Positions 34,901 to 61,800 of a stretch of DNA of 64,000 bases are shown here, piece after piece. The position numbers were made by a program, and so were the translations under genes. Under the pieces are notes generated by a model that saw nothing but the letters and a program-made list of their open reading frames with translations, did not search any database and was not told the DNA's origin. Source of the DNA: Leucoraja erinacea. Lineage: Eukaryota. The stretch's first letter is position 1, and the number at the start of each line of letters is the position of its first letter. The stretch lies in contig NC_073385.1 in assembly GCF_028641065.1 (NCBI RefSeq), positions 18,600,001 through 18,664,000 of the forward strand, read 5' to 3'.

Positions 34901-34995
34901 AATATCATTGTTATGTTTATCATTATTCTTTTTGTTTTGTTTTTGTTTCTGGAAGAAAAAAGCTAATAAAAAGATTTTAAAAGAAAGAAAGAAAA
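25940..34995 (+). mobile_element. L1-clade LINE (5'-truncated, degenerate), interrupted by a Rex1-like fragment and by the DIRS element
   Basis: APE remnants (NVYAP), RT YADDLLL, GGLALPNLRFYYWA, C-terminal CCHC (CDRC...LTHMFWSC at 34070-34411), T-rich 3'UTR, AATAAA and (GAAA)n tail near 34990. Confidence 0.9.
29421..34012 (+). mobile_element. DIRS1-type tyrosine-recombinase retrotransposon, full structure, ORFs decayed
   Basis: Inverted terminal segment 29451-29479 vs 33911-33939. Internal complementary region 33688-33800 equals the reverse complement of both termini joined. Remnants of RNase H (LHTD, DTTVVAYVNHMGG), a methyltransferase-like domain (DLFAS, IVPDWPTQPW) and YR (HSTR..A.S, AGW, LY.KP at 33278-33595). 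ATTT at both junctions; interrupts L1 ORF2. Confidence 0.93.
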
Positions 34996-35260
34996 TTTCA
35001 TTCAGTTTTCTTAATTTTTAAGAAAGTTATGGGCTTTTGACTGTCCTCAATCACAGCTTTTGAGTTAAGTCAATGGAAAAGCAATTTGCAATTTGCATTG
35101 CAATCTAGGGCAAGATGCTAATTTCAGAGTATGAAACTTTTTTAATACTAAAGATATGAAAGTGAATTAGGTGTCAAATTAAACTACTTTTTATGCTTTA
35201 TCTGATGGGATAAATTGCAGACTTGATTTTTTAAATCTAAACATTTTGTAATATTGCTAA

Positions 35261-36253
35261 TCAGAGGGGAAGGTCTGAGATGTGTTTAGGGGTCTGGTCG
35301 GCACGGTGGTGTTCCAGCCGCCCACAGAGCCGCGGCAGTTTGTGTTTGAGGGCGGTGGTCAAGTGGACAATGTCCTGTCGTGCCGCGTCGGAGAGCCAGC
35401 AGTAGAGGATGGGGTCGGCCGCGCAGTTGACTCCAGTCCAGGCGAAGAAGACATTGTAGGGGGTGATGGCGAGCTGGGCGAAGGGGCAATTGCCCGGCTC
35501 GGCCACGCTGCGGGCAAGGGAGGTCAACTGGTAAGGCCCGAAGCTGACGGCGTAGACCAGGAGGAGCAAGAGCAGCAACTTGGCGATCTTCCTCTTCTCT
35601 CCGTCTTCCACGCCGCTGCTCCTGGCCACCGCCCTGTAGATCCTCTGGGAGCTGAAGAGGAAGAGGGAGAAGGGGAGGCAGAAGCTGAGGAGGAAACGTA
35701 TCAGGTATGCCTCGGCCGTGGTGGCCTCCAGGGGAAGATCCACCCAGAGTGGCCTGGAGGTGAAGTCGGAGGAGAGGAGGCCCTGCTGGTGGAGGAGGAG
35801 GGCGTGGAGGGACAGCTGGAGCAGCCAGCACATCGCGCTCACTGCCGCGGCTGCCCGCAGGGTCCTCAGCCGGTGGAACCGGAGAGGATGGACAATGGCG
35901 AGGTGGCGGTCCGCCGCAATGCAGCACAGGAAGGCAGGGCTCATGTACATGGTGCTGGAGGACAACACCGCCACCGTGTTGTGCACGGACACGTTGCCGA
36001 TGGCGGTAGTGAAGTGATGGCAGAACCAGTAGGGCAAGGTGAGGGTGTAGATGATGTCGACGAAGCAAAGGTTGATCAAGTAGACGCCGATCTCGTTGCC
36101 TCTCTTCACTTGCAATGCGGCCATGTAGATGGACAGGCAGTTGCCGGGCAAGCTGACGAGGAAGGTGGCGGCGTAGATGACCGGCACCAGGACATCCGCG
36201 CTGTTGTCCACCAAGCAACTGGAGTTGGACCTCCCGACCGTCACGTTGTCCAT
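35261..36253 (-). CDS. Class A GPCR, GPR4/GPR65/GPR68 (proton-sensing) family-like, copy 1, 330 aa
   Basis: Intronless GC-rich ORF from MDNVTVG with seven hydrophobic segments. Family motifs: LPGNCLS, QV+++NE.GVYL.NL, LPYW, AFLCCIAADRHLA.VHPLRF..LR, FGPY, NC.ADPILYC. Polypyrimidine-AG acceptor about 35 nt upstream of the ATG. Confidence 0.9.
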   Translation of the reverse strand: MDNVTVGRSNSSCLVDNSADVLVPVIYAATFLVSLPGNCLSIYMAALQVKRGNEIGVYLINLCFVDIIYTLTLPYWFCHHFTTAIGNVSVHNTVAVLSSSTMYMSPAFLCCIAADRHLAIVHPLRFHRLRTLRAAAAVSAMCWLLQLSLHALLLHQQGLLSSDFTSRPLWVDLPLEATTAEAYLIRFLLSFCLPFSLFLFSSQRIYRAVARSSGVEDGEKRKIAKLLLLLLLVYAVSFGPYQLTSLARSVAEPGNCPFAQLAITPYNVFFAWTGVNCAADPILYCWLSDAARQDIVHLTTALKHKLPRLCGRLEHHRADQTPKHISDLPL

Positions 36254-36381
36254 CAATGTCAACAGGTCACATAGGTTGAACCAACACCTGCGCCGGGGAA
36301 TAGAGAGAGATACGTGGAGACAACAGACAATAGTCAAAAGGAGTAGGCCATTTAGCCCTTCGAACCAGCACCGCCATTCAC

Positions 36382-37411
36382 TAGGTATGTTACAATACTT
36401 GCCTTCAGTGGCGCTGCATTTCTGCCACTGGCCGTGTGCGCGACTTTGGCATCTTCGAGGGGGGGGCGGGATTAAAATGCCATTTTCTCCTGCCTGTCCG
36501 AAATATATTTTCTCGGCTGCTAGCTGATGCAGAAAAATAATTCCTACTTCCGTTCTCGGAAGTTTAAAAAAAAAATCGCGGGACAATTTAATCCCTGGAG
36601 TAAAATAAAAAACTACTTCTAATGCCGTCAACGCCTACAACTGGAAGGATCTCACGTAGGAGACAAAACATAAGGTAAGTCATCTATTTTACGTATAAAC
36701 TTGCTTCTTAGGATTTAATTAAAATTTCATTGGCGAAAATTTGATTTTGGCCCCATATGAATCGGCAGCATTTTTCCTGCCAATATGGGGTTCAAATTCA
36801 CTGCAACCACAACGTTTCAATCGACTGCGTTCCACAAAAACCCACTCGCTAGATGATTAAAATGTCCATTCATTTAAGGGAATTAAACATTAAATTCCTT
36901 CCATTTGGCCTATAAATTCACGACTGAGATGTAAAAATCATCTTAAATTGTGAATTCTTGTGTGAATGTTATTTGGACACTTAGGCTATTTAAAAATGTT
37001 AATCTTTTCTTAAGAAATGGATAGACGTTTAGATCTAGTAATTGAATTTTGTAATTAGCTACAATTAGGTAACTAACTAATTATATGCTTTAATATCAGG
37101 TCATCCAAGTAAGATTGTTTAATATTTGTTTCAGAATGCTTCAATTTATAATAACTGAAAATTTCATTCAGTTCTCTTAACTTTTAAGAAAGTTATGGGC
37201 TATTGACTGTCCTTGATAACAGCTTTTGAGTTAAGTCAATGGAAAAGCAATAGGGAACTAGATGCTAATTTCAGTATGTAAATGGCCATAACGTTTTTAA
37301 TACTGAAGATAGGAAAGTTTAGATGTCAAATTAAACTTCTTTTTATGCTTTATCTGATGGGATAAATTGCAGACTTGATTTTTTGAATCTCAAAGTTTTG
37401 TAACGTTGCTA
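36382..37411. mobile_element. Non-autonomous hAT-like DNA transposon inserted in a CR1 tail
   Basis: Imperfect 14-bp TIR (TAGGTATGTTACAA vs TAGCAACGTTACAA) with CATTCAC(T) duplicated. Same family at 34995-35259, 54466-54724 and 59814-60700. The superfamily assignment is tentative. Confidence 0.65.
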
Positions 37412-38140
37412 CATTCACTGTGATCATGGCTGATCATCCACAATCAGTACCCCGTTCCTGCCATCTCCCCATTTCCCCTGACTCCGCTACCTTTAAGAGC
37501 CCTATCTAGCTCTCCCTTGAAAGTATCCAGAGAACCTGCCTCCACCACCCTCTGAGGCAGAGAATTCCACAGACTCACAACACTGGGTGAAAAAGTGTTT
37601 CCTCGTCTCCGTTCCAAATGGCCTACCCCTTATTCTTAAACTGTGGCCCCTTTTTTCTGGACTCCCCCAACATCAGGAACATGTTTCCTGCCTCTAGCGT
37701 GTCCAATCCCTTAATAATCTTATATGTTTCAATAAGATTGCCTCTCATCCTTTTAAACTCCAGAGTGAACAAGCCCAGCCACTCCATTCTCTCAGCATAT
37801 GACAGTCCCGCCATCCCGGGAATTAACCTTGTAAACCTACGCTGCTCTCCCTCAATAGCAAGAATGTCCTTCCTTAAATTAGGGGACCAAAACTGCACAA
37901 AATACTCCAGGTGTGGTCTCGTGTACTGCCTCAGTGTCATCGTCCGCTCACTCTTTAGCAATCTTTCACCCAGAATCTAAACTACATCACCCTTATCTAA
38001 TGTAATGCCCTCACTGAGTCCCTTAGCCACCCCTCCACTCTGCAGTAGTATCACCATGCCTCTTACACTACTTCCCTACTCATGCACAATCAATACCTCT
38101 AGATTCTGCTTTACATTTGCCACCAGTCTTTCTCATTCTC

Positions 38141-38173
<33 letters not shown>

Positions 38174-38418
38174 TCTCTCTCTCACTCTCTCTATATTTGT
38201 CTCTGTCTCTGTTCCACTCTGAGTTGAATTTCATTGAATACTTTATTGTCACCTGTGACAAGTAATTGAACCTCTTTGCTTGTGTACCCAAGGTATGCAA
38301 ATAGTCGCCCATAAAAGGCACTGATACGATTAAGGAGATCCCTCGGGTCCAGGTCCCCCTTTGTTGTCCCCTCTCCTCCCCCTCCTCACGGAGGAACCTC
38401 CTAAACTGGGTCTGTACA

Positions 38419-38450
<32 letters not shown>

Positions 38451-38479
38451 CGATAGACAACAAATGCTGGAGTAACCCG

Positions 38480-38898
38480 GTCTATTCGAGGTCCGGGTCC
38501 CTGGAGGCCTCTCTCTCTGCCCCTGCCCCCTCTCTGCCCCTGTCCTACCCTCCTCTCTGGCCGTGACTCCTCTCTGGCCGTGCCTGCGAGTTGGGGGCTA
38601 TGCGTGAGTGGATAGGGTGGGGATGAGGTAAAAGGAGCGAATGAATAATATTAATATAATATCAAGGGGGATGATTAGTGTGTGCGTGTGGGGTGGTTAG
38701 TATGATTAGTGTGTGCGTGTGGGGTTGGTTAGTATGTGTGTGTGTGTGTGGGGTGCTGGTTAGTGTGTGTGTGCGTGTGTGGTAGTGGTTAGTGTGTGTG
38801 TGTGTGTGTGTGAGACGCCCAGCCCCCCCCCCCCCCCCCCCCCCCCACAGCAACCGTGTGTTGAGGAGACGGGACCCAACGAGTCCCACTTGCTCCAG
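38480..38898 (+). mobile_element. Helitron-like 3' fragment with (GT)n and poly-C; mirrored at 51194-51608
   Basis: Terminal hairpin GGGACCCAACGAGTCCC followed by ACTTGCTCCAG|T. Confidence 0.4.
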
Positions 38899-39617
38899 TT
38901 AACATTAAAAGTAACGAACAGCAGTGTCATACAGAAAAATCTTCAGCCTCGATTTAAAATAACTGAGAGTCGGAGCAGGCCTGCATTTTTCTGGAAGTTT
39001 GTTCCCTTTCTGGCTGTCGGTCATAAAGAAAGGAAGAGAGAAATGTTGGCTATACCTGAATGACAACTGCGGTCAATGTGCGTACTCCACTCGTTTCCTG
39101 CGGACACGGTCCTTGCACCTACTCGCTGCTACTGATAGCTCGGTACCAGGATGTATAACTGACTATAGAAATAAAGAGCAGCCCTTCACATGCGTAGTGA
39201 AATTTAAACAAATTACGTGTCACACGAGGGGAAAACAAGATCATTTAAATATTAAAGTAAACTCCGGATTTTTGCATATGGCATGAAAATATTATGAATA
39301 TGAAATATTGGGATGGAAATGTGAGAGAAACCACACTGTGAGATGTGCGGGGTGAGACCTTTTACACAGAGGGTGGTGGGTGCCTGGAACACGCAGCCAG
39401 GGGTGGTGGTGGAGGCAGATTTGAGTTTAGTTTCGAGATACAGTGCGGAAACAGGCCCTTCGGCCCACCGAGTCCCGCCTACCAGCCATCCCTGCACACT
39501 AGCACTATCATACACACACTAGGGACAATTTTTACAATCAGACACAAGCCAATTGACCTACAAACCTGTACGTTTTGTTTGGCGTGTGGGTGGAAACCGG
39601 AGATCCTGGAGAAAGCC

Positions 39618-41113
39618 TTGTTAAATGTTAAATTTACAATCTATATTAATGATCTGGATGAGGGAATTGAATGCAACATCTCCAGGTTTGTGGATGACAT
39701 GAAGCTGGGGGGCAGTGTTAGCTGTGAGGAGGATGCTAGGAGGCTGCAAGGTGACTTGGATAGGCTGGGTGAGTGGGCAAATGCATGGCAGATGCAGTAT
39801 AATGTGGATAAATGTGAGGTTATCCATTTTGGTGGCAAAAACAGGAAAGTAGACAATTATCTGAATAGAGGCCGATTAGGAAAGGGGGAGATGCAACGAG
39901 ACCTGGGTGTCATGGTACACTAGTCATTGAAAGTAGGCATGCAGGTGCAGCAGGCAGTGAAGAAAGTGAATGGTATGTTAGCATTCATAGCAAAAGGATT
40001 TGAGCATAAGAGCAGGGAGGTTCTACTGCAGTTGTACAGGGTCTTGGTGAGACCACACCTGGAGTATTGCATACAGTTTTGGTCTCCTAATCTGAGGAAA
40101 GACATTCTTGCCATAGAAGGAGTACAGAGAAGGTTCACCAGGCTGATTCCTGGGATGGCAGGACTTTCATATGAAGAAAGACTGGATAGACTCGGCTTGT
40201 ACTCGCTAGAATTTAGAAGATTGAGGGGGATCTTATAGAAACTTACAAAATTCTTAAGGGGTTGGACAGGCTAGATGCAGGAAGATTGTTCCCAATGTTG
40301 GGGAAGTCCAGAACAAGGGGTCACAGTTTAAGGATAAGGGGGAAGTCTTTTAGGACCAAGATGAGAAAAACATTTTTCACACAGAGAGTGGTGAATCTGT
40401 GGAATTCTCTGCCACAGAAGGTAGTTGAGGCCAGTTCATTGGCTATATTTAAGAGGGAGTTAGATGTGGTCCTTGTGGCTAAGGGGATCAGGGGGTGTGG
40501 AGAGAAGGCAGGTACGGTATACTGAGTTGGATGATCATATTGAATGGCGGTGCAGGCTCGAAGGGCCGAATGGCCTACTCCTGCACCTATTTTCTATGTT
40601 TCTATTGTTAACAAAATAGAGAGAGTACAGAGGAGATTTACTAGAATGTTGCCTGGGTTTCAGCAACTAAGTTACAGAGAAAGGTTGAACAAGTTAGGGC
40701 TTTATTCTTTGGAGCGCAGAAGGTTAAGGGGGGACTTGATAGAGGTTTTTAAAATGATGATAGGGATAGACAGAGTTGACGTGGAAAAGCTTTTCCCGCT
40801 GAGAGTAGGGAAGATTCAAACAAGGGGACATGACATGAGAATTAAGGGACTGAAGTTTAGGGGTAACATGAGGGGGAACTTCTTTACTCAGAGAGCGGTA
40901 GCTGTGTGGAATGAGCTTCCAGTGAAGGTGGTGGAGGCGGGTTTGTTTTTATCATTTAAAAATAAATTGGATAGTTATATGGATGGGAAGGGAATGGGGG
41001 GTTATGGTCTGAGCGCAGGTATATGGGACTAGGGGAGATTATGTGTTCGGCACGGACTAGAAGGGTCGAGATGGCCTGTTTCCGTGCTGTAATTGTTATA
41101 TGGTTATATGGTT
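39618..41113 (+). mobile_element. Composite of two CR1 3' fragments inserted in a SINE; left arm only
   Basis: Two successive RT C-termini with different tails; AAAGCC at both ends. Absent from the mirrored SINE at about 50460. Confidence 0.85.
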
Positions 41114-44100
41114 AAAGCCCACACACGTCACGGGGAGAACGTACAAACTCCGTACATATAGGTCAGGATGGAACCTGGGTCTCTGGCACTGTGAGGCAGC
41201 AACTCTACCCTGTAAGGAGCGTTATAATATTATAGTGGCGACCGTTTAAGTCAAGACCCAGCTACTTGTTGGGTCATTTCTGTCAGACTTGAAAGTTACA
41301 GCATGGTCCCCTAATCTGAGGAAGGACATTCTTGCTATTGAGGGAGTGCAGCGTAGGTTTACAAGGTTAATTCCCGGGATGGCGGGACTGTCATATGCTG
41401 AGAGAATGGAGTGGCTGGGCTTGTACACTCTGGAGTTTAGAAGGATTAGAGGGGATCTTATTGAAACGTATAAGATTATTAAGGGTTTGGACACGCTAGA
41501 GGCAGGAAACATGTTCCCGTTGTTGGAGGAGTCCAGAACCAGGGGCCACAGTTTAAGAATAAGGAGTAAGCCATTTAGAATGGAGACGAGGAAACACTTT
41601 TTCTCCCAGAGAGTTGTGAGTCTGTGGAATTCTCTGCCGGTTCTCTGGATACTTTCAAGAGAGAGCTAGGTAGGGCTCTTAAAGATAGCAGAGGGGATAT
41701 GGGGAGAAGACAGGAACGAGGTGCTGATTGGGGATGATCAGCCATGATCATATTGAATGGTGGTGCTGGCTCAAAGGGCTGAATGGCCTACTCCTGCTCC
41801 TATTGTCTAATGTCTATTGACATAGTTTGGTTTAATTTAGTTCAGTTTGGTGTCGCGTGTACCGAGATTCAGTGAAAAACCTTTTTGTTGCGTGCTATCC
41901 AGTCAGCGGAAAGACTGTACATGATTACAATCCAGCCGTCCACAGTGTACAGATACAGGATAAAGGAATAAAGTTTAGTGCAAGGTTAAGCCCAGTAAAG
42001 CCTGATTAAAGATAGACTGAGGGTCTCCAATGAGGTAGATGGGAGGTCAGGACTGCTCTCTAGTTGGTGATAGGATGATTCAGTTGCCTGATAACAGCTG
42101 GGAAGAAACTCTCCCTCAATCTGGAGGTGTGCCTTTTCACACTTCTGTACCTCTTGCCTGATGGGAGAGGGCAGAGGGATGAACAGGCCCTTCGGCCCAC
42201 CGAGTCCATGCCGTGAGTCCAGTTTCCCTCACATACAGACTGCCCACCCTTAGGCCCATAACTCTGGTGATAAAAAAATTACCCAGGAAAGTACTCGTTG
42301 ACCAGGGAACAGAGCAGTGAATAACATCAAATAAGAGAAACAAAAAGGGTATGAAGAATAATATTTTTGATGTAGCGGGCGGAACAGTGTGTAGGAAAGA
42401 ACTGCAGATGCTGGTTTGAATCAATGGTGGACACAAAATGCTGGAGTGACTCAGCGGGACAGGCAGCATCTCTGGAGAGAAGGAATGGGTGGAAACGTTT
42501 CAGGTCGAGACCCTTCTTGAAACTGGACAGTGGGGGCAGGTTTCAAAGAACATAGAACAGCACAGCACAGGAACAGGCCCTTCGGCCCACAAACCCTGTG
42601 CTGAACACGATGCCAGAACCAACCCTTACTTGCCTGCACGTAGGCCAAAGCCCTCCATTCCCTGCATATCCATGTGCCCATCCAAAAACCTCTTAAACAC
42701 CACTATCGTATCTGCCTCCACCACCATCCCCTGGCAGCACGTTCCACGCACCCACCACCCTCTGTTGAGTAGAGCTACAACTCGTGGAAAAAAAAGCTGT
42801 TTTTATGTCTGGCTGTGGCAGCTTTGACAGTCCGGTGTCGCCTTCCAGAGGGAAGTGATTCAAAGAGGTTGTGGCCAGGGTGAGACGGGTCAGAGATGAT
42901 CTTGCCCGCTCACTTCCTGGCCCTTGCAGTGTATAGTTCGTCAATGGAGGGAAGGTTGCAGCCAATAACCTTCTCTGCTGATCGGGCGATTCACTGCAGC
43001 CTCCAGGTGTCGAGTTTGGTGGCTGAGCCAAACCAGACCATGATGGAGAAGGTGAGGACAGACTCTACGATGGCCGTGTAGAATTGGACCATCATTGCCT
43101 GTGGCAGATTGTGCTTTCTCAGCTGCCGCAGGAAGTACATCCTCTGTTGTGCCTTTTTGACTGTGGAGTCGATGGTAGCCCCCCACTTAAGGTCCTTGGA
43201 GATGATGGTTCCCAGGAATTTAAAAGACTCCACAGATGTGACTGTGGTGTTGTTGATGGTGAATGGGGTGAGGGGAGGGGGAGCTCCCTCTAATATGTTT
43301 ATTAGGCATTAGCAGCCTTGTGGCCCTGCGGTGGAGCCTGATCTTGGGTGCTGTGTGTGTGAAGTGTAATTTAGTTCAGTTTAGTCTGTAGTCGCGTGGC
43401 TTGGTGACTTTGGCATCATGGGGCTGTGGGCTGCGGAGCTTCTAGCTGCGGGCGTGGTGTGGACTTACCCTCGCGGGGATTGCCGGAGAAGAGCTCCGAC
43501 CTCCGGCCTGTGTGCGGCCTAAAACATCCTGAAGCCACGGTCTCTGGTAGGAAAGTGCCGATTCGGGCGCTCCAAGCCACGCAGTGTGTTCGACCGTCCC
43601 GACGTCGGATTTTGGATCATCCCGACGAGAGGGCCTGTACATCGGGCCGTCCGTAGTGGCGACTACGGAGGGCTCACGGCCCCGACCACAGGTGAACAAA
43701 GGAGGAGGACTGACCACGTGGGTTTCCTCCGGGTACTCCGGTTTCCTCCCACACTACAAACACTTGTTGGTTTGTAGGTTATTTGGCCCCTAGTGTGTAG
43801 GGAGTGGATGGGAAAGGTGGGATAAGGTGAAACTAGTGTGAACGGGTGATCGATGGCCGGCCTGGACTCGGTGGGCTGAATATAATATAACGTTACTGAA
43901 TGTATGTACAGTCGCTGAGAAGGTCTTTTAGTTTTGTTTGGAGATACATTGCGAATACAGGCCATTCGACCCACCAAGTCCATGCCAACCAGCGATCATC
44001 CCGTACAGTAACACTATCCCACACACACTCGCGACAATTTACAATTTTACCAAAGCCAACCTACAAACCCGTACGTCTTTGGAGTGTGGGAGGAAACCGG

Positions 44101-44407
44101 AGCACCCGGAGAAAACCCACGCAGGTCACGGGGAGAACGTACAAACTCCGTACAGACAGCACCCGTAGTCAGGATTGAACCCGGGTCTCTGGCGCTGTGA
44201 GGCAGCAACTCTACCTCTGCGCCACCGTGCCGCCCTCTATATAATTGGAGGTGCGGTACGTGATAGTTTTATTAAACACTATCCAATATAACGCTAAAGA
44301 ATGTATGTATAGCGGCTGAGAATGTCGGAAGCATTTTCACAGTTCTAGGTTTGTTTATATTTGTTATTATTCCGAATAAAGTTTATTCTTGGGGAAAGAA
44401 AATCAAT

Positions 44408-44580
44408 TAACCAATAACCAATCAACCAATAACCAAACAATAGCCAACCAACCAATAACCAGCCAATAACCAACCAATAACCAACCAATAACCAACCAAT
44501 AACCAACCAATAACCAACCAATAACCAACCAACCAATAACTAACCAATAACCAGCCAACCAACCAACCAATCAATCAATC
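44408..44580. repeat. (AACCAAT/AACC)n simple repeat
   Basis: Directly visible; lies at the start of the palindrome spacer. Confidence 0.9.
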
Positions 44581-44648
44581 AAATGAAAAGCTTTTACAAT
44601 CTGCTACATATATTCATTGATAATCTAATCCAGAATCTAATCTCCCTT

Positions 44649-44852
44649 TTTTGAAGCGGAACTGGTTAAACCGAAGATAGACACAAAAAGCTGGAGTAAC
44701 TCAGCAGGCCAGGCACCATCTCTGGAGAGAAGGAATGAGTTAAGTTTTGGGTCGTGTCTGAAGAAGGCTCTCGACCCGAAACGCCACCCATTCCTTTTCT
44801 CCAGTGATGCTGCCTGTCCCGCTGAGTTACTCCAGCTGTTTGTGTCTATCGA
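44649..44852. mobile_element. Foldback Penelope-tail element with 18-bp TSD
   Basis: CAGAATCTAATCTCCCTT at 44631-44648 and 44853-44870; inverted arms with a hammerhead-like core at 44758. Confidence 0.8.
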
Positions 44853-45059
44853 CAGAATCTAATCTCCCTTATACGACAATGTTTCAATAATGTGTTGGAT
44901 GGGAACTGCAAATGCTGGTTTACACCGAAGAGAGAGACAAAAAAGCTGGAGTAACTCAGCAGGACAGGCAGCATCTCTGAACTGAACTGAACTGAACTTT
45001 ATTTATAGAGCACTTTAAAAACAACCACTGTTGCAACAAAGTGCTGTGCATGACTAATC

Positions 45060-45800
45060 ATAAACATAAAACAAAACAATAAAAACATTAAAAGACAGTA
45101 AAAACAATAAAAAAACCAACAGAAACACTAAAACAGGAGCAAAGTCTCATGCAGGGTCGAAAGCCAAGGAATAGAAAAGGGTTTTAAGACTGGTTTTGAA
45201 AATGGACAGTGAAAGGGCCTGTCTAATGTGCAAAAGTAGAGTGTTCCATAATGTCGGAGCAGCAACAGAGAAGACTCTATCCCTTCTGAGCTTCCGCTTA
45301 GACCTCAGTACCTCCAGGAGCAGCTGATCAGCTGACCTGAGGCACGTTGGGATGAAGCAGCTCAGAGAGGTAAGGCGGGGCGAGACCATTTAAAGATTTA
45401 AAAACAAATAAAAGAATCTTAAAATGAACTCTAAAGTACACCGGCAGCCAGTGGAGGGAGGCTGCTCCCTCTTACGTGTTCCAGTTAAAAGGCGAACAGC
45501 AGCATTCTGAACCAACTGGAGACGTGCAAGGGAAGATTGGCTAACTCCAAAATAAAGTGCGTTACAGTAATCCAGCCGAGACGTGATGAAGGCATGGATT
45601 ACTGTTTCAAAATGCTGTCGTTCAAGAGTGGGCTTCACCTTTGCCAGCTGCCTTAAATGAAAGAAGCTGGACTTAACTACCGCGCCTATTTGACGATCTA
45701 ATTTAAAATCACTGTCCATCTTAAAACCCAAGTTTAAAACTGTTGGCTTCACATACAATGCCAAGGGACCCAAGTCAACAGGGGGAGGTTCACGGGAGCC
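45060..45800 (-). mobile_element. L2-clade LINE 3' fragment in the palindrome spacer
   Basis: NLG...DS......I..VVKSSFFHLR.LAKV......HAFITSRLDYCNAL......LQLVQNAA.RLL. Confidence 0.75.
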
Positions 45801-47420
45801 ATTCACAGTAGTTCCCACTTTCCCATCCACTCCCTACACACGAGGGCCAATTAACATGCAGACCAGCATGTGTGTGAGTGATGTGGGAGGAAACCTGAGC
45901 AACCGGAGAAAACCCACGTGGTCACAGGAAGTACGTACTTTACTGGGCATTATATTGCCGTATATCATGTATCGGTACGCTGTAATCATCTTTCATGATC
46001 CTCTTTCAGCTGGCTGATATAAATTTGAGCTTGAATAGAGATGATGTCTCTACTTCGCCTTTGCATATTTCCTTGTTCCACGACCGCAGCTCTGGCCATG
46101 ATACGCCTGTGTCTGTTCCAGCCCTCTGGTGAGATCAAACACAAAGCACTCACTGTCGTTTCCAGCAAGACAAAAGCCTAATTGTGTCATCAGATGCCAG
46201 TCCTGGCGTGTTGGTGCCGGAAGGGAACATGATTTTAATTTAGAGATTCAGCGCAGAAACAGGACCTTCAGCCCATCGAGTCCGGGCCAGCCATCTATCA
46301 CCCGTTCACACAAGTTCGACCCTTTCCCAATATATAGAGGGCGGCACGGTGGCGCAGCGGTAGAGTTGCTGCCTCACAACGCCAGAGACCCGGGACCAAT
46401 CCTGACTACGGGTGCTGTCTGTGCGTTCTCCCCGTGACCTGCGTGGGTTTCTCCAGGCACTCCGGTTTCCTCCCACACTCCAAAGACATACGGGTTTGTA
46501 GGTTGGCTTAGGTAAAATTGTAAATTGTTGCTAGTGTGTGTGGGATAGTGTTACTGTACGGGGTGATCGCTGTTGGCATGGACTTGGTGGGCATGATGTA
46601 TCTCTAAACAAAACTAAAAGACCTTCTCAGCGGCTGTCCATACATTCATTAACATTATATTATATTTAGCCCACCGAGTCCAGGCGATCCATCGATCACC
46701 CGTTCACACTAGTTCCACCTTATCCCACCTTTCCCATCCACTCCCTACACACTAGGGGCCAAATAACCTACAAACCAGCACATGTTTGTAGTGTGGGAGG
46801 AAACCGGAGCACCCGGAGGAAACTCACGCAGTCACAGGGAGAACGTACTTTACTGAACTTTATCTTGCATTAAATGTTATTCAAAGTCAATGTTATACAT
46901 CACATGTACCCGAAGGTGCAGTGAAATGTATTTGCCAGCAGCGATACTTAAAAAGAACGCACAGTACACAATAAGATTTAACACAAACATCCCCCACAAC
47001 ATTCTTCACTGGGGTGGAAGGCAACAAAGTTCAGCCAGTCCTCCTCCTTTGTTCACCCGTGGTCGGGGCCGTGAGCCCTCCGTAGTCGCCACTACGGACA
47101 GCCCGATGTACAGGCCCTCTCGTCGGGATGATCCAAACTCCGACGTCGGGACGGTCGAATACACTCCGCGGCTTGGAGCGCCCGAATCGGCACTTTCCTA
47201 CCGGAGACCGCGGCTTCTGGATGTTATAGGCTGCAGACAGGCCGGCAGTCGGAGCTGTTCTCCGGTGATCCCCGGCGAGGGATCCCAGATCCCTCGTGGT
47301 AAGTCCACGTGGTAAGTCCACGCCACGCCCTCGGCTAGAAGCTCCGCAGACCACAGTCCCATGATGCCAAAGTCACCAGGCCACGTGACAATAGACTAAA
47401 CTGAACTAAATTAAACTTCA

Positions 47421-47617
47421 AAGGTACACAAAAAAGCTGGAGAAACTCAGCGGGTGCAGCAGCATCTATGGAGCGAAGGAAATAGATAACGTTTCAGGCC
47501 AAAACCCCCCCAAACGTTGCCTATTTCCTTCGCTCCATAGATACTGCTGCACCCGCTGAGTTTCTCCAGCTTTTTTGTGTACCTTCGATTTTTCAGCATC
47601 TGCAGTTCCTTCTTAAA
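47421..47617. mobile_element. Foldback Penelope-tail element with 14-bp TSD
   Basis: Inverted arms of about 70-80 bp; TAAATTAAACTTCA at 47407-47420 and 47618-47631. Empty site in the opposite arm at about 43360-43380. Confidence 0.85.
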
Positions 47618-50600
47618 TAAATTAAACTTCACACAGACAGCATCTAAGATCAGGCACTACCGCTGGGTCACGAGGCTGCTAATGTCTAATAAACATATTA
47701 GAGGGAGCTCTCCGCTCCCCCTCATCCCACTCATCATCAATAACACCACAGTCACAACTGTGGAGTCTTTTAAGTTCCTGGGAACCATCATCTCCAAGAA
47801 CCTTAAGTGGTTCTCCTGGGACCAAGTGGGGGGCTACCATCGACTCCACAGTCAAAAAGGCACAACAGAAGATGGACTTCCTGCGGCAGCTGAGGAAGCA
47901 TAATCTGCCACAGGCAATGATGATCCAATTCTATACGGCCATCGCAGAGTCTGTCCTCACCTTCTCCTCATGGTCTGGTTTGGCTCAGCCACCAAACACA
48001 ACACCTGGAGGCTGCAGTGAATCGTACGATCAGCAGAGAAGGTTATTGGCTGCAACCTTCCCTCCATTGATGAACTGTACACCGTAAGGGCCAGGAAGCG
48101 AGCTGGTAAGATCATCTCTGACCCCTCTCACCCTGGCCACAAACTTTTTGAATCACTTCCCTCTGGAAGGCAACTCCGTACTGTCAAAGCTACCACAGCC
48201 AGACATAAAAACAGTTTTTATCCAGGAGTAGTTGCTCTACTCACCAGCCAAAAATCTGTAGCTTCCCTTTGATCTGGTATTTTATTTAATTCACATGTTT
48301 AATCGATAATGTTTTATTAATAATGTTTTATGTGTCATTCCTAACTGTCACTGTATGTCATGTTGTCACTTGCGCGCGGAGCACCAAGGCAAATCCCTTG
48401 TATGTGAATACTTGGCCAATAAATGTATTCATTCATTCAATCATTCAGTCATTCATTCATCTAATAAATAAATGCAATTAGGCTGCTTTTGAGTCTGGCA
48501 TCCAGTTCTGATTGCCGCATTACAGGGAGGCTTTGGAGAGGGTGTAGAAGATGTTTACCAGAATGCTGCCCAGATTAAAGTGTATTAACTCCAAGGAGAG
48601 GATCGACAGACTTGAATCGTTTACTCTTGAGCGTCGGAGGTTGGGGACACCTGAGAGAAGTATATAAAATGATGAGAGGCATAGATGTGGTAGACAGTCA
48701 GAACCTTTTCCCCATTGCGGAAATGTCAAAGACTAGAGGGTGTAGCTTTAAGGTGAGAGGGGCAAAGTGTGGGGCAAGTTTTTTTTACACAGAGGGTGGC
48801 GGGTGCCTGGAAAGTGCTGCCAGGGGATGGTGGTGGAGGCAGATACGATAGTGGTGTTTAAGAGGTTTTTGGATGGGCACATGGATATGCAGGGAATGGA
48901 GGGCTATGGACTACGTGCAGGCAAGTAAGGGTTGGTTCTGGCATCGTGTTCAGCACAGGGTTTGTGGGCCGAAGGGCCTGTTCCTGTGCTGTGCTGTTCT
49001 ATGTTCTTTGAAACCTGCCCCCACTGTCCAGTTTCAAGAAGGGTCTCGACCTGAAACGTTTCCACCCATTCCTTCTCTCCAGAGATGCTGCCTGTCCCGC
49101 TGAGTCACTCCAGCATTTTGTGTCCACCATTGATTCAAACCAGCATCTGCAGTTCTTTCCTACACACTGTTCCGCCCGCTACATCACAAATATTATTCCT
49201 CATACCCTTTTTGTTTCTCTTATTTGATGTTATTCACTGCTCTGTTCCCCGGTCAACGAGCACTTTCCTGGGTAATTTTTATCACCAGAGTTATGAGCCT
49301 AAGGGTGGGCAGTCTGTATGTGAGGGAAACTGGACTCACGGCATGGACTCGGTGGGCCGAAGGGCCTGTTCATCCCTCTGCCCTCTCCCATCAGGCAAGA
49401 GGTACAGAAGTGTGAAAAGGCACACCTCCAGATTGAGGGAGAGTTTCTTCCCAGCTGTTATCAGGCAACTGAACCATCCTATCACCAACTAGAGAGCAGT
49501 CCTGACCTCCCATCTACCTCATTGGAGACCCTCAGTCTATCTTTAATCAGGCTTTACTGGGCTTAACCTTGCACTAAACTTTATTCCTTTATCCTGTACC
49601 TGTACACTGTGGACGGCTGGATTGTAATCATGTAGTCTTTCTGCTGACTGGATAGCACGCAACAAAAAAGGTTTTTCACTGTATCTCGATACACGCGACA
49701 CCAAACTGAACTAAATTAAACTAAACAAAACTATGTCAATAGACAATAGACAATAGGAGCAGGAGTAGGCCATTTGGCCCTTCGAGCCAACACCGCCATT
49801 CAATATGATCATGGCTGAGATCATCCCCAATCAGTACCCCGTTCCTGCCTTCTCCCCATATCCTCTGTCCCGCTATCTTTAAGAGCCTTATCTAGCTCTC
49901 TCTTGAAAGTATCCAGAGAACCGGCCCCCACCGCCCTCTGCGGCAGAGAATTCCACAGACTCACCACTCTCTGTGAGAAAAAGTGTTTCCTTATCTCCGT
50001 TCTAAATGGCTTTGCCCCTTATTCTTAAACTGTGGCCCCTGGTTCTGGACTCCCCCAACATCGGGAACATGTTTCCAGCCTCTAGCGTGTCCAAGCCCTT
50101 AATAATCTTATATGTTTCAATAAGATCCCCTCTAATCCTTCAAAACTCCAGAGTGTACAAGCCCAGCCGCTCCATTCTCTCAGCATAAGACAGTCCCGCC
50201 ATCCCGAGAATTAACCTTGTAAACCTACGCTGCACTCCCTCAATAGCACGAATGTCCTTCCTCAGATTAGGGGACCATGCTGTAACTTTCAAGCCTGACA
50301 GAAATGACCCAACAAGTAGCTGGGTCTTGACTTAAACTGTTGCCACTATAATATCATAACGCCCCTTACAGGGTAGAGTTGCTGCCTCACAGCGCCAGAG
50401 ACCCGGGTTCCATCCTGACCTATATGTACGGAGTTTGTACGTTCTCCCCGTGATGCGTGTGGGCTTTCTCCAGGATCTCCAGTTTCCCCCCACACTCCAA
50501 ACAAAACGTACAGGTTTGTAGGTCAATTGGCTTGTGTCTGATTGTAAAAATTGTCCCTAGTGTGTGTATGATAGTGCTAGTGTGCGGGGATGGCTGGTAG

Positions 50601-51287
50601 GCGGGACTCGGTGGGCCGAAGGGCCTGCTTCCGCACTGTATCTCGAAACTAAACTCAAATCTGCCTCCACCACCACCCCTGGCTGCGTGTGTAAAAGGTC
50701 TCACCACCCTCTGTGTAAAAGGTCTCACCCCGCACATCTCACAGTGTGGTTTCTTTCCATCCCAACGTTTCACATTCATAAGATTTTCATGTCATATGCA
50801 AAAATCCAGAGTTCACTTTAATATTTAAATAATTAAATAAACTTGTTTTCCCCTCGTGTGACACGTAATTTGTTTAAATTTCACTACGCATGTGAAGGGC
50901 TGCTCTTTATTTCTATAGTCAGTTATACATCCTGGTACCGAGTTATCAGTAGCAGCGAGTAGGTGCAAGAACCATCGCCGCAGGAAACGAGTGAAGTACG
51001 CACATTGACCGCAGTTGTCATTCAGGTACAGACAACATTTCTCTCTTCCTTTCTTTATGACCGACAGCCAGAAAGGGAACAAACTTTCAACAAACTTCCA
51101 GAAAACTGCAGGCCTGCTCCGAATCTCAGTTATTTTAAATCGAGGCTGAAGACTTTTCTGTTTGACGCTGCTGTTCATTACTTTTAATGTTAACTGGAGC
51201 AAGTGGGACTCGTTGGGGTCCCATCTCCTCAACACACGGTTGCGGGGGGGGGGGGGGGGAGGAGGGGGGGGGGGGAGGCCTGTGGCG

Positions 51288-51360
<73 letters not shown>

Positions 51361-51795
51361 CCACCCCACCACACATACACTAACTAACCCCCTTGATATT
51401 ATATTAATATTATTAATTCGCTCCTTTTACCCCATCCCCGCCCTATCCACTCACACATAGCCCCCAACTTGCAGGCGCGGCTGGAGAGGGAGAGGGGGCA
51501 GGGACAGAGGGGGTAGGGCAGGGGCAGAGGGAGGGGGCAGGGGCAGAGGGAGGGCAGGGGAAGAGAGAGAGGGCAGGGGCAGAGAGAGAGGGCAGGGGCA
51601 GAGGGACAATACTTTTCTGCTGAACCCTGCTGTTCATTACTTTTAATTTAAATTAAACTAAATAAGTAATTCATTTTTAACACTGCACTGTCATTTTTAT
51701 TCTGTTTAAGAAGGAACTGCTGATGCTGGAAAAATCAAAGGTAGACAAAAACCCTGAAGAAACTCAGTCGAGACCCTTCTTCAGACTCAGACTTT

Positions 51796-51829
51796 GGTCT
51801 GAAGAAGGGTCCCGTCCCGAAACGTCACC
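51796..51829 (+). ncRNA. Minimal type I hammerhead-ribozyme motif (best-preserved copy; Penelope-derived)
   Basis: GGU-CUGAAGA-A-GGG(UCCCGU)CCC-GAAA-CG-UC-ACC: core boxes, stem II, a palindromic ACGU in place of stem III, GUC cleavage triplet and a 3-bp stem I. Related cores at 975(+), 3351-3379(-), 4308(+), 19793(+), 44758(+), 60175-60203(-). Activity not shown. Confidence 0.65.
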
Positions 51830-53471
51830 TATATCCTTCTCTCCATAGGTGCTAACTCACCCGCTGAGCTTCTCCAGGGTTTTTGTCGACCTGTAATTTG
51901 TATTTTTGTATTTTATACTTGTCTTATTCTATTCTAGCTTGTTTTTATTTTATTTTATTTTTAATGACTGTTTTTATTTGCTTTTGATTGCTTTTTAATG
52001 CTTAGTGTAAAGCACTTTGAATTGCCTCGTTGTTGAAACGTGCGGTATAAATAAACTTGCTTGCTTGCTTTACAGCATTAACAAAAAATTAAGTTGCACA
52101 GAGGCGCAGAGGGTAGAGCTGCTGCCTCCAGGGACCCGGGTTCGATCCTGACCTCGAGAAGAATAGACCGGGTAGATGCACAGAGAGGCTCTTGCCCATA
52201 GTAGGGGAAGCGAGGACCAGAGCATTTAGGTTTAAGGTGAAGGGGGGGGGAAGATTTAATAGGAATCTGAGGGCTAACATTTTCACACAAAGGCTGGTGG
52301 GTGTATGGAACGAGCTGCCAGAGGAAGTAGTGCTATGAGAATGCAGGGTGACTTGGACAGGTTGGATGAGTGGGCAGATGCATGGCAGAGGATGTTTAAT
52401 GTGGATAAATGTGAGGTTATCCACTTTGGTAGCAAACAACAGCAAGGCAGATTACTATCTAAATGATGTCAAGTAAAAGGGGAAGTACAACGGGATCTGG
52501 GGGGGGGGGGGTGCTTGTTCATCAGTCAATGAAAGTAAGCATGCAGGTACATTTAGAAAAAATTACATGCAGGCAGTGAAGAAAGCGAATGGCATGTTGG
52601 CCTTTATAACAAGAGGAGTTGAGTATAGGAGCAAAGAGGAGGTCCTTCTGCAGTTGTACAGAGCCCTAGTGAGACCACACCTGGAGTATTGTGTGCAGTT
52701 TTGGTCCCCTAATTTCAGGAAGGACATTCTTGCTATTGAGGGAGTGCAGCGTAGGTTTACAAGGTTAATTCCCGAGATGGCGGGACTGTCATATGCTGAG
52801 AGAATGGAGCGGCAGGGCTTGTACACTCTGGAATTTAGAGGGATGAGAGGATATCTTATTGAAATATTTAAGATGTTTAAGGGCTTGGACATGCTAGAGG
52901 CAGGAAACATGTTCCTGATGTTGGGGGAGTCCAGAACCAGGGCCACAGTTTAAGAATAAGGGGTAGGCCATTTAGAACGGAGACGAGGAAACACTTTTTC
53001 ACACAGAGAGTTGTGAGTCTGTGGAATTCTCTGCTTCAGAGGGCGGTGGAGGCCGGTTCTCTGGATACTTTCAAGAGAGAGCTAGATAGGGCTCTTAAAG
53101 ATAGCGGAGTCAGGGGATATGGGGAGAAGGCAGGAAAGGGGTACTGATTGGGGACGATCAGCCATGATCACATTGAATGGCGGTGCTGGCTCGAAGGGCC
53201 GAATGGCCTACTCCTGCACCTATTGTCCATTGTCTATTGTAGTTGAGGCTGGGACTATCTCAACTTTTAAGAAACAGTTAGACAGGTACATGGATAGGAC
53301 AGATTTGGAGGGATATGGCAGGTGGGACTTGTGTAGCTGGGATATGTTGGCCGGTGTGGGCAAGTTGGGCCGAATGGCCTACTCCTGTTGTCTATTGTCC
53401 ATCGTCTCCACGTATCTCTCTCTATTCCCCAGCGCAGGTGTTGGTTCAACCTATGTGACCTGTTGACATTG

Positions 53472-54464
53472 ATGGACAACGTGACGGTCGGGAGGTCCAA
53501 CTCCAGTTGCTTGGTGGACAACAGCGCGGATGTCCTGGTGCCAGTCATCTACGCCGCCACCTTCCTTGTCAGCTTGCCCGGCAACTGCCTGTCCATCTAC
53601 GTGGCCGCATTGCAAGTGAAGAGAGGCAACGAGATCGGTGTCTACTTGATCAACCTTTGCTTCGTCGACATCATCAACACCCTCATCTTGCCCTACTGGT
53701 TCTGCCATCACTTCACTACCGCCATCGGCAACGTGTCCGTGCACAACACGGTGGCGGTGTTGTCCTCCAGCACCATGTACATGAGCCCTGCCTTCCTGTG
53801 CTGCATTGCGGCGGACCGCCACCTCGCCATCGTCCACCCTCTCCGGTTCCACCGGCTGAGGACCCTGCGGGCAGCCGTGGCGGTGAGCGCGACGTGCTGG
53901 CTGCTCCAGCTGTCCCTCCACGCCCTCCTCCTCCACCAGCAGGGCCTCCTCTCCTCCGACTTCACCTCCAGGCCACTCTGGGTGGATCTTCCCCTGGAGG
54001 CCACCGCGGCCGAGGTGTGCCTGATACGTTTCGTCCTCAGCTTCTGCCTCCCCTTCTCCCTCTTCCTCTTCTGCTCCCAGAGGATCTACAGGGCGGTGGC
54101 CAGGAGCAGCGGCGTGGAAGACGGAGAGAAGAGGAAGATCGCCAAGTTGCTGCTCTTGCTCCTCCTGGTCTACGCCGTCAGCTTCGGGCCTTACCAGTTG
54201 ACCTCCCTTGCCCGCAGCGTGGCCGAGCCGGGCAATTGCCCCTTCGCCCAGCTCGCCATCACCCCCTACAACGTCTTCTTCGCCTGGACTGGAGTCAACT
54301 GCGCGGCCGACCCCATCCTCTACTGCTGGCTCTCCGACGCGGCACGACAGGACATTGTCCACTTGACCACCGCCCTCAAACACAAACTGCCGCGGCTCTG
54401 TAGGCGGCTGGAACACCACCGTGCCGACCGGACCCCCAAACACATCTCAGACCTCCCCCTCTGA
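53472..54464 (+). CDS. Class A GPCR, GPR4/GPR65/GPR68 family-like, copy 2, 330 aa
   Basis: Same protein as copy 1 with 12 aa differences by eye; intact ORF. Acceptor tctctctctattccccagcgcag ends at 53437. Confidence 0.9.
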   Translation: MDNVTVGRSNSSCLVDNSADVLVPVIYAATFLVSLPGNCLSIYVAALQVKRGNEIGVYLINLCFVDIINTLILPYWFCHHFTTAIGNVSVHNTVAVLSSSTMYMSPAFLCCIAADRHLAIVHPLRFHRLRTLRAAVAVSATCWLLQLSLHALLLHQQGLLSSDFTSRPLWVDLPLEATAAEVCLIRFVLSFCLPFSLFLFCSQRIYRAVARSSGVEDGEKRKIAKLLLLLLLVYAVSFGPYQLTSLARSVAEPGNCPFAQLAITPYNVFFAWTGVNCAADPILYCWLSDAARQDIVHLTTALKHKLPRLCRRLEHHRADRTPKHISDLPL

Positions 54465-54724
54465 TTAGCAATATTACAAAATGTTTAGATTTTTTAAATC
54501 AAGTCTGCAATTTATCCCATCAGATAAAGCGTAAAAAGAAGTTTAATTTGACACCTAATTCACTTTCATATCTTTAGTATTATAAAAGTTATGGCCATTT
54601 TCATACTCTGAAATTAGCATCTTGTTCCCTATTGCTTTTCCATTGACTTAACTCAAAAGCTGTGATCAAGGACAGTCAAAAGCCCATAACTTTGTTAAAA
54701 AATTAAGAGAACTGAATGAAATTT

Positions 54725-57700
54725 TCTTTCTTTCTTTCTTTTAAAATCCATCCTGGGCATTGTGTATTTTCTAAATCATTTGTCCAAAACATTAAATAAC
54801 GAACATTAACTGCCCAATAGTAGAATCTAAGGTTCGGCAGTGCCAATCCGCTGTCTTTTTTTGATTTATGTAAGTATTTTTTACTTAGTCTGGAATTTTT
54901 ATTCTGCCATATACATGAAAACATTTTGGAATCAATAATATCAAAGAAAGATTTGGCAATAAAAATTGGGATCGTCTGAAATAAATACAAAAATTTTGGT
55001 ATGATAAACATTTTAATAGCATTGATTCAGCCGATTAAAAATAAGGATATTGGTGACCATTTAGTAAACTGTTGTTTGATATGGTCAATTAGAGGCGTAA
55101 AATTAGCTTTAAATAAATCCTTGCGTTTCTTGGTAATCTTAATACCTGAATAAGTAAAACTTTCGGTAGTCAATCTAAATGGAAACTGTCCATAATTCAA
55201 AACTAGATTGTTTAATGGAAAAGGCTCACTCTTACTAAGATTTAGTTTATAACCAGACAAACTACTAAATTGATTAAGTGGTGCTACTATTGCCGGAATA
55301 GATTTCTCAGCATTAGAAATGAATAATAACAGATCATCTGCATAAAGAGATAGCTTATGTGTCTTATTCCCGCGGACAATACCAAAAATATTAGGGGATT
55401 CCCTAATAGCGGTGGCCAAAGGTTCCAAAGCAATGTCAAACAGTAAAGGACTTAAAGGACAGCCCTGTCTAGTACCTCGAAAGAGCCTGAAAAAAGGGGA
55501 TCTCTGATTATTGGTAAGTACAGAAGCCTGAGGTATATGATATATCAGCTTGACCCAAGAAATACATTTTGGACCAATCTTAGATTTTTCAAGTGTGTTG
55601 AATAAGTATTCCCATGCTACTCTATCAAACGCCTTCTCGGCATCAAGTGAAATGACACATTCTGGGGTTTTATTTAACGGTGTATATACGATATTCATTA
55701 TTCTCCTAATGTTAAAGTATGAGTAACGATTTTTAATAAAACCTGTCGGATCTTCAGATATAATTTGCGGTAATATATTTTCCAATCTCATAGCTAATAT
55801 TTTGGAAATAATTTTGGAATCTACATTTAACAGTGATATAGGTCTATATGATGTCACTTCAGTAGGGTCTTTATCTTTTTTAAGAATTAAAGAAATAGAT
55901 GTTTCATAAAAGGATTGTGGTAATCTATTCATTAAAAAGGCTTCTTTAAAACCCTTGCATAGCCAGGGAGACAGTAAACTTGAGAATTAGAATTCTACTG
56001 TAAACCCATCTAAACCGGGAGCTTTACCAGAATTCATTGAAGCGATTTATTTCTGTATTTCTTCCTCCGTGATGGGTTCATCTAACAACAGAGACTCATT
56101 ATGTGGTAAATTTGGCAAACTCTTGCATTATATTGGAATCAGTAGGAAATTCTGATTGGTATAGGGAGGTATAAAATTCCTGAAAGGATTTATTAATTTC
56201 GTCATGGTCAACAGTTAGTGTACCATCCCGTTTACTCACTTTAGTAATCTGACATTTGGCCGACACCGCTTTAAACTGATTAGCGAGTAATTTACCAGAT
56301 TTTTCACCATGAATATAAAATTGACTTTTGGTTTTAAGTAGCTGGTTCTAAATCGGTGATATTAATAACAAATCATATCTCAATTGAAGTTCAACTCTAT
56401 TTTTATAGAGCTCTAAACTAGGAGCTTTTGAATATTTTTTATCACTTTCTCTAATCTCATCAGTCAATATACGTATTTCGTTTTGAGTTTGTATTTTTAA
56501 TCCCGTGGAGTATGAAATAATTTGTCCACGAATATATGCCTTAAAAGCATCCCAGACTACATCATTGGATATTTCTTCAGTAGAGTTTGTTAAGAAGAAG
56601 AAAGCAATCTGATCTTTAATAAAATTAACAAAATTTAAATCTTGAAGCAAATTAGCATTAAATCGCCATTGTTTAGCACTAAACGTGGAATCAGGTAGTT
56701 TGTTTGATAGTTTCAATGGTGCATGATCAGAAATAACAATTGCATCATACTTACATGCAGTGACCGATGAAACTAGCCGAGAATTTATTATAAACTAGTC
56801 AATCCTAGAATAACTATGAGAATACATATACATGAGAAAAAAAAGAAAATTCTTTGTCATTTGGGTGTAAGAATCTCCAGACTTCTAACATTCCAGAATC
56901 AAGTAAAAAAGAATTGATAAAACTAGCTAATTTATTTGGAAGCACATGATCAGCTGTAGATCTGTCAATCGAGGGGTTCAAACAACAGTAAAAATCTCCA
57001 CCCATTATTAAAAAGTGTTCATTTAAATTAGGATAGGATGCAATTAACTGTTTAAAAAACTCAGGGTGATCAATATTTGGTGCATAAACATTCACCATAG
57101 CAACTTTTTGGTTATAAAGAACACCAGTAATCACCAAAAAATCTACCATATGGATCAAACATTATTTCATAATGAACAAATGGAATTGAGGAGTCCATAG
57201 AAATCGAGACTCCTTTCACTTTAGCCTGTGAATTTGAATGAAACTGCTGTCCTCTACGAAACTTGAAAAACCGTTGTCATCTTGCCTTACATGAGTTTCC
57301 TGAACAAAAATAATCTGAGCATTTAGTCTACAAAGAACTTAAAACATTTTTTTTGTCTTAATTGGATGGTTCAAGCCATTCACATTCCATGAAAGGAAAT
57401 TAATACCTTTATCCATATTATTTGTAAAAATCATGTGGGATGTAAAGGGTTAATTTCTTAAAGCATAATAGTTCATGGTACTGGAAGAAGAAAAATCTTG
57501 GGCGGAGCCAGAAGTGATGACATTTCAGACATTTTGTAATTCAGATTCTGCACAAATGAAAAACACTAAGCTAAAAACAAAAGACCCCACCCGTGCAAAA
57601 CCCGAAACTGACCAATACAGTCAGTACGCTACCTAATCCCTTCCCTACCCCCATCTCTCCTAACAATAGCACCCAGCGTAAAAAGAAAGCATATTTGCCA

Positions 57701-61606: not shown

Positions 61607-61800
61607 NNNNNNNNNNNNNNNNNNNNNNNNNNNNNNNNNNNNNNNNNNNNNNNNNNNNNNNNNNNNNNNNNNNNNNNNNNNNNNNNNNNNNNNNNNNNNN
61701 NNNNNNNNNNNNNNNNNNNNNNNNNNNNNNNNNNNNNNNNNNNNNNNNNNNNNNNNNNNNNNNNNNNNNNNNNNNNNNNNNNNNNNNNNNNNNNNNNNNN
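61607..61800. other. Assembly gap
   Basis: Run of 194 N. Confidence 1.

Follow-up and report, generated by a model that had tools for sequence, protein, structure and literature searches.

A disulfide bond between the top of transmembrane helix 3 (TM3, position 3.25) and the second extracellular loop (ECL2, position 45.50) is found in >90% of class A receptors (PMC9287403), and a tryptophan in ECL1 packs on it as a latch (PMC7707821). The bond is kept in structures of GPR4 (PMC11724869), a receptor that also relies on a bond between its N-terminus and TM7 (PMC12187918). In GPR4, GPR65 and GPR68, pH sensing is governed by a buried triad of Asp2.50, Glu4.53 and Asp7.49; E4.53Q mutants of GPR4 and GPR68 lose their response below pH 7.4 (PMC7948426); the substitution raises the pH of half-maximal response (pH50) rather than abolishing signaling (PMC7948426, PMC11042331). 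A mutational scan of GPR68 defined a relay of His7.36, Tyr3.33, Glu45.52 and Arg6.58, and E149Q or a positively charged residue at H269 (position 7.36) increased activity (PMC11042331). Chicken and zebrafish GPR65 show no proton response (PMC6790391) and thus offer a precedent for its loss. A set of receptors close to GPR65 was named 'GPR68B' by Rinne et al. 2019, with ENSLACP00000000626 as an example; the passage in question mentions no group other than fishes and coelacanth and assigns no function (PMC6504862). Here, we describe two receptor genes of this family, copies A and B, in a window of 64,000 nucleotides from the little skate Leucoraja erinacea (contig NC_073385.1, positions 18,600,001 to 18,664,000), which together with their cartilaginous fish orthologues have lost both cysteines of the TM3-ECL2 disulfide.

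The original prediction held that two intact receptors of the proton-sensing family lack a Cys at position 3.25 and in ECL2. We could confirm this, with His91 and Leu169 found at positions 3.25 (defined as 25 residues N-terminal of R3.50) and 45.50, respectively, and no ECL2 Cys in either copy. In phmmer alignments, human GPR68 and GPR4 both have Cys at these two positions. The N-terminal and ECL3 cysteines (Cys13 and Cys256) and a DRH motif are present as originally reported. Both open reading frames (ORFs) are intact; the positions first assigned to them were those of stop-to-stop frames, the true starts being located at 36253 and 53472. Both proteins match the 7tm_1 domain (Pfam, 123 bits versus a cut-off of 30.5), and within the PDB they match GPR68 and GPR4 best. 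A Cys is found at 3.25 ±2 in 105 of the 110 class A relatives that could be anchored on a DRY motif (from 147 representatives), and the skate state is thus unusual and not a matter of chance. Cys183 was dismissed as a general substitute partner, as it occurs in copy B only.

We next compared the skate copies to 21 proteins from 19 species and 16 genera of cartilaginous fishes (a set that includes them), collected using copy A and the clade alignment as queries and covering a chimaera, seven shark genera, sawfish, stingrays, devil rays and skates. Same-species duplicates (P0014, P0022, P0026), a fused model (P0020) and a broken model (P0058) were excluded. Both disulfide cysteines are missing in 21/21 proteins. 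Position 3.25 is occupied by Tyr (15 proteins), His (5) or Gln (1), and position 45.50 by Tyr (14), Leu (4) or Phe (2), with one deletion. A frameshift or assembly artefact was rejected because the same states are present in the independent genomes of 18 other species. A compensating disulfide involving Cys78 in the WFCHH motif, which would have spoken against the original prediction, does not exist clade-wide: ECL2 contains a Cys in 0/21 proteins, and 11 of them have no Cys anywhere in ECL1 or the TM3 top. The N-terminal Cys is present in 19/19 full-length proteins and the ECL3 Cys in 21/21, counts that refer to the residues, the bond between them being predicted. The DRH motif was discarded as the key change, as it is found in only 3/21 members; by alignment, it is a minor skate trait.

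To place these receptors, we calculated an IQ-TREE phylogeny from 59 rows, left from 76 after removal of 17 that were distant or long, and a mixture-model tree from 36 rows. The cartilaginous fish clade is supported at 100/100 in the 59-row tree. It is sister to a clade of coelacanth, sturgeon and teleost proteins (97/95 and 99/98 in the 59- and 36-row trees, respectively), both group with GPR65 (100/96 and 99/96), and this assembly is located inside the GPR4/GPR65/GPR68 clade, with GPR132 and GPR184 outside (100/98 and 99/96). Approximately unbiased (AU) tests reject a derivation from or orthology with GPR4 (p=0.006 for the clade joined to GPR4) and GPR68 (p=0.035); skates and one shark moreover possess a distinct canonical GPR68 that retains both cysteines, including P0240 from the same skate species. 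In four species, the contig with the receptor gene equals in length the one with GPR68, and in one species the one with GPR132. No cartilaginous fish GPR65 was found among the matches obtained, in searches made with this receptor family. The segment of ECL1 from the TM2 Trp to position 3.25 comprises 13-14 residues in 20/20 scored cartilaginous and 12-13 residues in 115/119 bony members, as compared with 15-17 in 12/12 GPR4/65/68/132/184 references. The short ECL1 common to both groups represents an independent character that agrees with the trees. Together, trees and alignments make it highly likely that the skate ORFs are recent duplicates of the cartilaginous fish orthologue of an orphan receptor sister to GPR65, and place further orthologues in coelacanth, sturgeon, bowfin and teleosts. 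Contrary to the original proposal, the receptor is not lineage-specific, and the database names GPR4-like, OGR1-like and GPR65-like for these genes require correction. The clade very probably corresponds to 'GPR68B' of Rinne et al. 2019, although this is not proven: the coelacanth protein P0066 (H2ZTA5) is position 626 by accession counting from the paper's GPR184 example, in one of three alphabets tried, and one supplement of PMC6504862 contained no match for checking the label. In the literature searched, which mostly does not cover subscription journals, the name occurs in one paper only, and neither the clade in cartilaginous fishes nor its disulfide loss is described. We thus appear to be dealing with a real, class-wide structural variant of a named but uncharacterized fish orphan that is apparently unreported.

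Bony orthologues were taken from the best 120 of 304 matches to the bony alignment, 119 of which fall inside the clade; none of the named proteins among these 120 is from a tetrapod. Both cysteines are kept in 116/119. Because these orthologues and GPR4, GPR65 and GPR68 retain them, the double loss maps to the cartilaginous fish stem, and by this alignment it is a derived state and not skate-specific. Two bony exceptions (P0261, P0040) have deletions across the TM3 top and not substitutions. In the silverside Menidia menidia (P0361), an otherwise intact orthologue carries Tyr3.25 and Phe45.50, and its sister Odontesthes keeps both cysteines; by this single gene model, both residues would have been lost together a second time, independently. 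An apparent loss of Cys45.50 in sturgeon P0064 turned out to be a gene-model gap, as a near-identical protein, P0294, retains this residue. Only part of medaka P0067, a chimeric model, was used. In the carp Cirrhinus, the bony orthologue and a GPR65-type receptor are fused in a single model (P0029), indicating that the two genes are arranged in tandem there, and other long models of 513-571 amino acids occur among the bony-alignment matches. The ECL1 Trp is found at its position in 12/12 outside references, in 8/119 bony and in 0/21 cartilaginous members. Since it is mostly gone in bony members that keep both cysteines, the latch was lost first and the bond later. Alignments and trees show that the subfamily first trimmed ECL1 by ~3 residues and lost its Trp, that the cartilaginous stem then exchanged both cysteines, mostly for Tyr, and that skates further altered Tyr3.33, position 7.36 and, in Leucoraja erinacea, Glu45.52. 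The N-terminus/ECL3 cysteines, Asp2.50, Asp7.49, Arg6.58 and the G-protein face were kept when the cysteines of the stem were exchanged.

We investigated the residues involved in proton sensing. Position 4.53 is Gln in 18/21 cartilaginous proteins, with Glu found in chimaera, whale shark and sawfish and in 119/119 bony members. Gln4.53 also occurs in the GPR65-like proteins P0073 (reedfish) and P0077 (Discoglossus), and the substitution thus recurs outside the clade. His7.36 is present in none of the 21 cartilaginous members (Lys in 16, Asn in 5) and in no bony member, where Leu or Met is found. His1.31 is missing in 21/21 and His6.52 in 13/21. Kept in the cartilaginous set are Tyr3.33 (16 proteins), Glu/Asp45.52 (18), Arg6.58 (21), His4.57 (21) and the two buried Asp (20-21). 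In the skate copies, positions 1.31, 3.33, 45.52, 6.58 and 7.36 are Asp, Ser, Val, Arg and Asn, so that the extracellular relay is mostly lost, and the buried triad is incomplete, with both Asp kept and Gln at 4.53. The altered relay residues fit a different pH response, and we infer, as did the original prediction, a different ligand or pH response.

In AlphaFold models, seven helices are present along with helix 8, and ECL2 is a coil (mean predicted confidence, pLDDT, of 77.0 for copy A and 84.5 for horn shark); GPR4 and GPR68 are the top Foldseek hits. Mean identity, calculated over 14 members with each genus represented once, is high in the first intracellular loop (ICL1)/TM2 (0.79), TM3 (0.71), ICL2 (0.69), TM7 (0.73) and ECL3 (0.84), and lowest in the loops ECL1 (0.25) and ECL2 (0.44). 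Conserved helices and intracellular parts, a cysteine loss fixed in all 21 proteins from 19 species and the missing ECL2 Cys together support the earlier view of a remodeled rather than a decaying receptor.

The two copies lie in an inverted duplication (Table 1). They differ in 21 codons, 12 non-synonymous and 9 synonymous, giving 12 amino-acid changes, and their coding identity is ~98% versus 87-95% for the duplicated flanks. Intact copy pairs are found in two skate genera, and the copies cluster by species (18 species-split sites versus 1 site common to a copy across species); this fits separate duplications or gene conversion. Copy B has the same putative splice acceptor as copy A, just before 53438. 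The candidate promoter blocks contain a possible splice donor as well as the motifs TGTGGT and CAGGAA; no RNA reads fell on them in four RNA runs. The multi-exon neighbor we take to be HHIPL1. A public 471-amino acid little skate model (P0020) joins copy B to the third-copy remnant (53472-59707) and is probably an annotation artefact. Between copy B and the remnant, the remnant of a long interspersed nuclear element (LINE) at 55027-59212 (-), with a reverse transcriptase (E=4e-38) and a coiled-coil ORF1-like frame, may have severed the 5' half of the third copy. Broken tyrosine-recombinase-like frames at 32887-33595 (+), with a weak Phage_integrase match (E=0.0009), probably represent a DIRS-type retroelement remnant. 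An assembly gap of 194 N is located at 61607-61800, and more receptor copies past it are possible.

Table 1. Features of the skate receptor locus, in window coordinates
Feature	Position	Strand	Description
Copy A (P0001)	35261..36253	-	Intact single-exon ORF, 330-amino acid class A receptor, cartilaginous fish GPR68B-type (label very probable)
Copy B (P0002)	53472..54464	+	Intact single-exon ORF, 330 amino acids; extra Cys183 at TM5 top
Codon 91, position 3.25	35981..35983 (A); 53742-53744 (B)	- (A); + (B)	His (CAC) in place of Cys
Codon 169, position 45.50	35747..35749 (A); 53976-53978 (B)	- (A); + (B)	Leu (CTC) in place of Cys
Codon 146, position 4.53	35816..35818 (A); 53907-53909 (B)	- (A); + (B)	Gln in place of buried triad Glu
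Cys13, copy A	36215..36217	-	N-terminal partner of retained N-terminus/ECL3 pair
Cys256, copy A	35486..35488	-	ECL3/TM7 partner of retained pair
Third copy, remnant	59378..59812	+	Begins at TM5; ~90% nucleotide identity to A and B; 12-nucleotide gap; premature stop
Inverted head-to-head segmental duplication	34973..54748	.	Blocks 35.0-44.2 kb mirror 46.3-54.7 kb, 87-95% identity
Putative splice acceptor, copy A	36287..36312	-	Pyrimidine tract then CAG, 34 nucleotides 5' of ATG; read from sequence
Candidate promoter and first exon	38900-39300; 50800-51250	-; +	Non-repeat block kept in both duplicated arms
Multi-exon gene near receptor cluster	385-18894	-	Folate-receptor-like, GSDH and SRCR domains (exons ~0.4-18.9 kb)

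Taken together, we consider it somewhat more probable than its negation that the receptor has the identity outlined above and is a functional orphan, but not a canonical acid sensor. It would fold and signal with ECL2 held by non-covalent packing and by the remaining disulfide, and would not switch on between pH 7.4 and 6.5 as GPR4 and GPR68 do. Gln4.53 and Lys7.36 mimic the protonated state in GPR68, and we thus read the receptor core as protonated-like; this may translate into basal activity or an alkaline-shifted response, with regulation by a ligand or by expression. The simplest reading for sharks is basal or alkaline-shifted activity with predicted G-protein coupling retained, whereas skates probably have no GPR68-type proton gating. 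The ligand is perhaps other than a proton. More speculatively, cartilaginous fishes may have kept a 'pre-protonated', disulfide-free receptor since their common ancestor, in which the Trp latch is lost, Tyr3.25/Tyr45.50 replaces the cystine and Gln4.53/Lys7.36 fixes an active or alkaline-sensing state, with Menidia having taken the same route independently; we would rate this scenario as less likely than not.

Several observations weigh against a functional orphan of this identity and type. In human GPR68, both disulfides are intolerant to mutation, and every substitution of C94 or C172 is harmful (PMC11042331); effects of human GPR68 mutants need not transfer at 33% identity. Gln4.53 is uncoupled from the disulfide loss, as chimaera, whale shark and sawfish keep the Glu. 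Sharks retain Tyr3.33, Glu/Asp45.52, Arg6.58 and both Asp together with Lys7.36, and some pH dependence is possible there. The evolution of the receptor outpaces that of GPR68 when identical pairs of species are compared (92 versus 95, 71 versus 88, and, for skate to sevengill, 56 versus 72% identity), and the ratio of non-synonymous to synonymous substitution rates between copies A and B (dN/dS 0.42, p=0.07) is not significantly below 1. RNA reads amount to ~1 read pair on the ORF in each of runs X8 and X12 and none in X15 and X6 (4 of 12 runs, 1-25% of each read, of unspecified tissue), with regional repeats covered and no splice junction seen; these four runs are uninformative as to expression. 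With respect to identity, the 36-row tree does not fix the coelacanth position within the 16-row clade, and the 'GPR68B' label rests on accession arithmetic.

A receptor of the same identity could still sense protons, albeit over a re-tuned range, the disulfide being dispensable on this scaffold. In sharks it would use Tyr3.33, Glu/Asp45.52, Arg6.58, the invariant His4.57 and the two buried Asp, whose retention (see counts above) is in its favor, as is the upward shift of pH50 with preserved signaling in E4.53Q mutants (PMC7948426, PMC11042331). We nevertheless regard it as rather unlikely, given that His1.31 and His7.36 are gone throughout and His6.52 in most members, that bony members have no His7.36 either, that the skate copies carry Ser3.33, Val45.52 and Asn7.36, and that even GPR65 in chicken and zebrafish is proton-unresponsive (PMC6790391). 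The freed ECL2 might instead have opened a pocket for a lipid, metabolite or peptide, yielding a ligand-gated receptor of low basal activity whose loops track the ligand. The bond is missing in S1P1, S1P3, LPA1, CB1 and CB2 (PMC8779880), in MrgD and melanocortin receptors (PMC9287403) and in GPR20 (PMC12444479), the related GPR132, which shares His4.57, responds to oxidized fatty acids (PMC8392051), and conservation among the loops is lowest in ECL1 and ECL2. Those bond-less receptors sit, however, on other branches, several with substitute disulfides missing in this clade, and Gln4.53/Lys7.36 point to raised basal activity. We consider this reading doubtful on its own; it is compatible with the functional orphan that we favor.

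For rajid skates, Cys78, His79, His80 and His91 could stand in for the disulfide by forming a metal or proton site. All four residues are present in 4/4 Leucoraja and Amblyraja proteins, where the tops of TM2 and TM3 lie side by side, but the cluster is missing in sharks and other rays, 11/21 clade members have no Cys at all in this stretch, and it leaves the older, clade-wide loss unexplained, rendering it very improbable. Equally far-fetched in our opinion is that the skate copies are decaying or silent, with selection relaxed after duplication and a clade-wide protein that barely functions. The long skate branch, the broken third copy, a Tyr69Asn change in TM2 of copy B and the near absence of RNA reads on the ORF would be expected in this case. 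The coding sequence is, however, conserved in 19 species, sharks being 58-79% identical to chimaera and to one another, intact pairs occur in two skate genera, and copies A and B are more similar in coding sequence than in their flanks.

Orthologues with and without the bond, an intermediate that has lost the Trp and kept the bond, and a possible repeat in Menidia together represent a natural test of the role of this disulfide, which is essential in human GPR68 (PMC11042331) yet missing clade-wide in cartilaginous relatives. The clade also carries natural E4.53Q and basic 7.36 variants resembling the mutants used to derive proton-sensing models and thus bears on both the triad and relay models. 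If the tentative scenario above were true, loss of the latch would be a step through which receptors can repeatedly dispense with the most conserved bond of class A.

We compared the cartilaginous fish receptor to known systems. It resembles 'GPR68B' (PMC6504862), its sister in both trees, in its short ECL1 without Trp, in His4.57, in the missing His7.36, in a common Gln6.52 and in an E-P-x-N-C pattern in ECL3, and differs from the bony members, which have Cys3.25/Cys45.50 (116/119), Glu4.53 (119/119) and Leu/Met7.36. GPR65 (TDAG8), the next clade out, shares a basic residue at 7.36, Asp2.50, Asp7.49 and Arg6.58, but in the aligned tetrapod proteins the disulfide and the ECL1 Trp are retained, as is Glu4.53 in all but one frog protein. 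GPR68 (OGR1) and GPR4 are the best sequence and fold matches in the PDB and share the N-terminus/ECL3 cysteine pair, whereas skate GPR68 (P0240) is 33% identical and has both cysteines, Glu4.53 and His7.36. The receptors S1P1/3, LPA1, CB1/2, melanocortin, MrgD and GPR20 signal without a Cys3.25-Cys45.50 bond. They belong to other families, and several contain bonds within ECL2 or between TM4 and TM5, while in our clade ECL2 is free of Cys and the bond persists in close orthologues. The 7tm_1 domain and seven-helix fold identify the cartilaginous proteins as class A members, among which the Cys3.25-Cys45.50 bond and Trp latch, typical but not obligatory features of the class, are found in 0/21. 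As absence of the bond is known from other class A receptors, the skate state is not a new kind.

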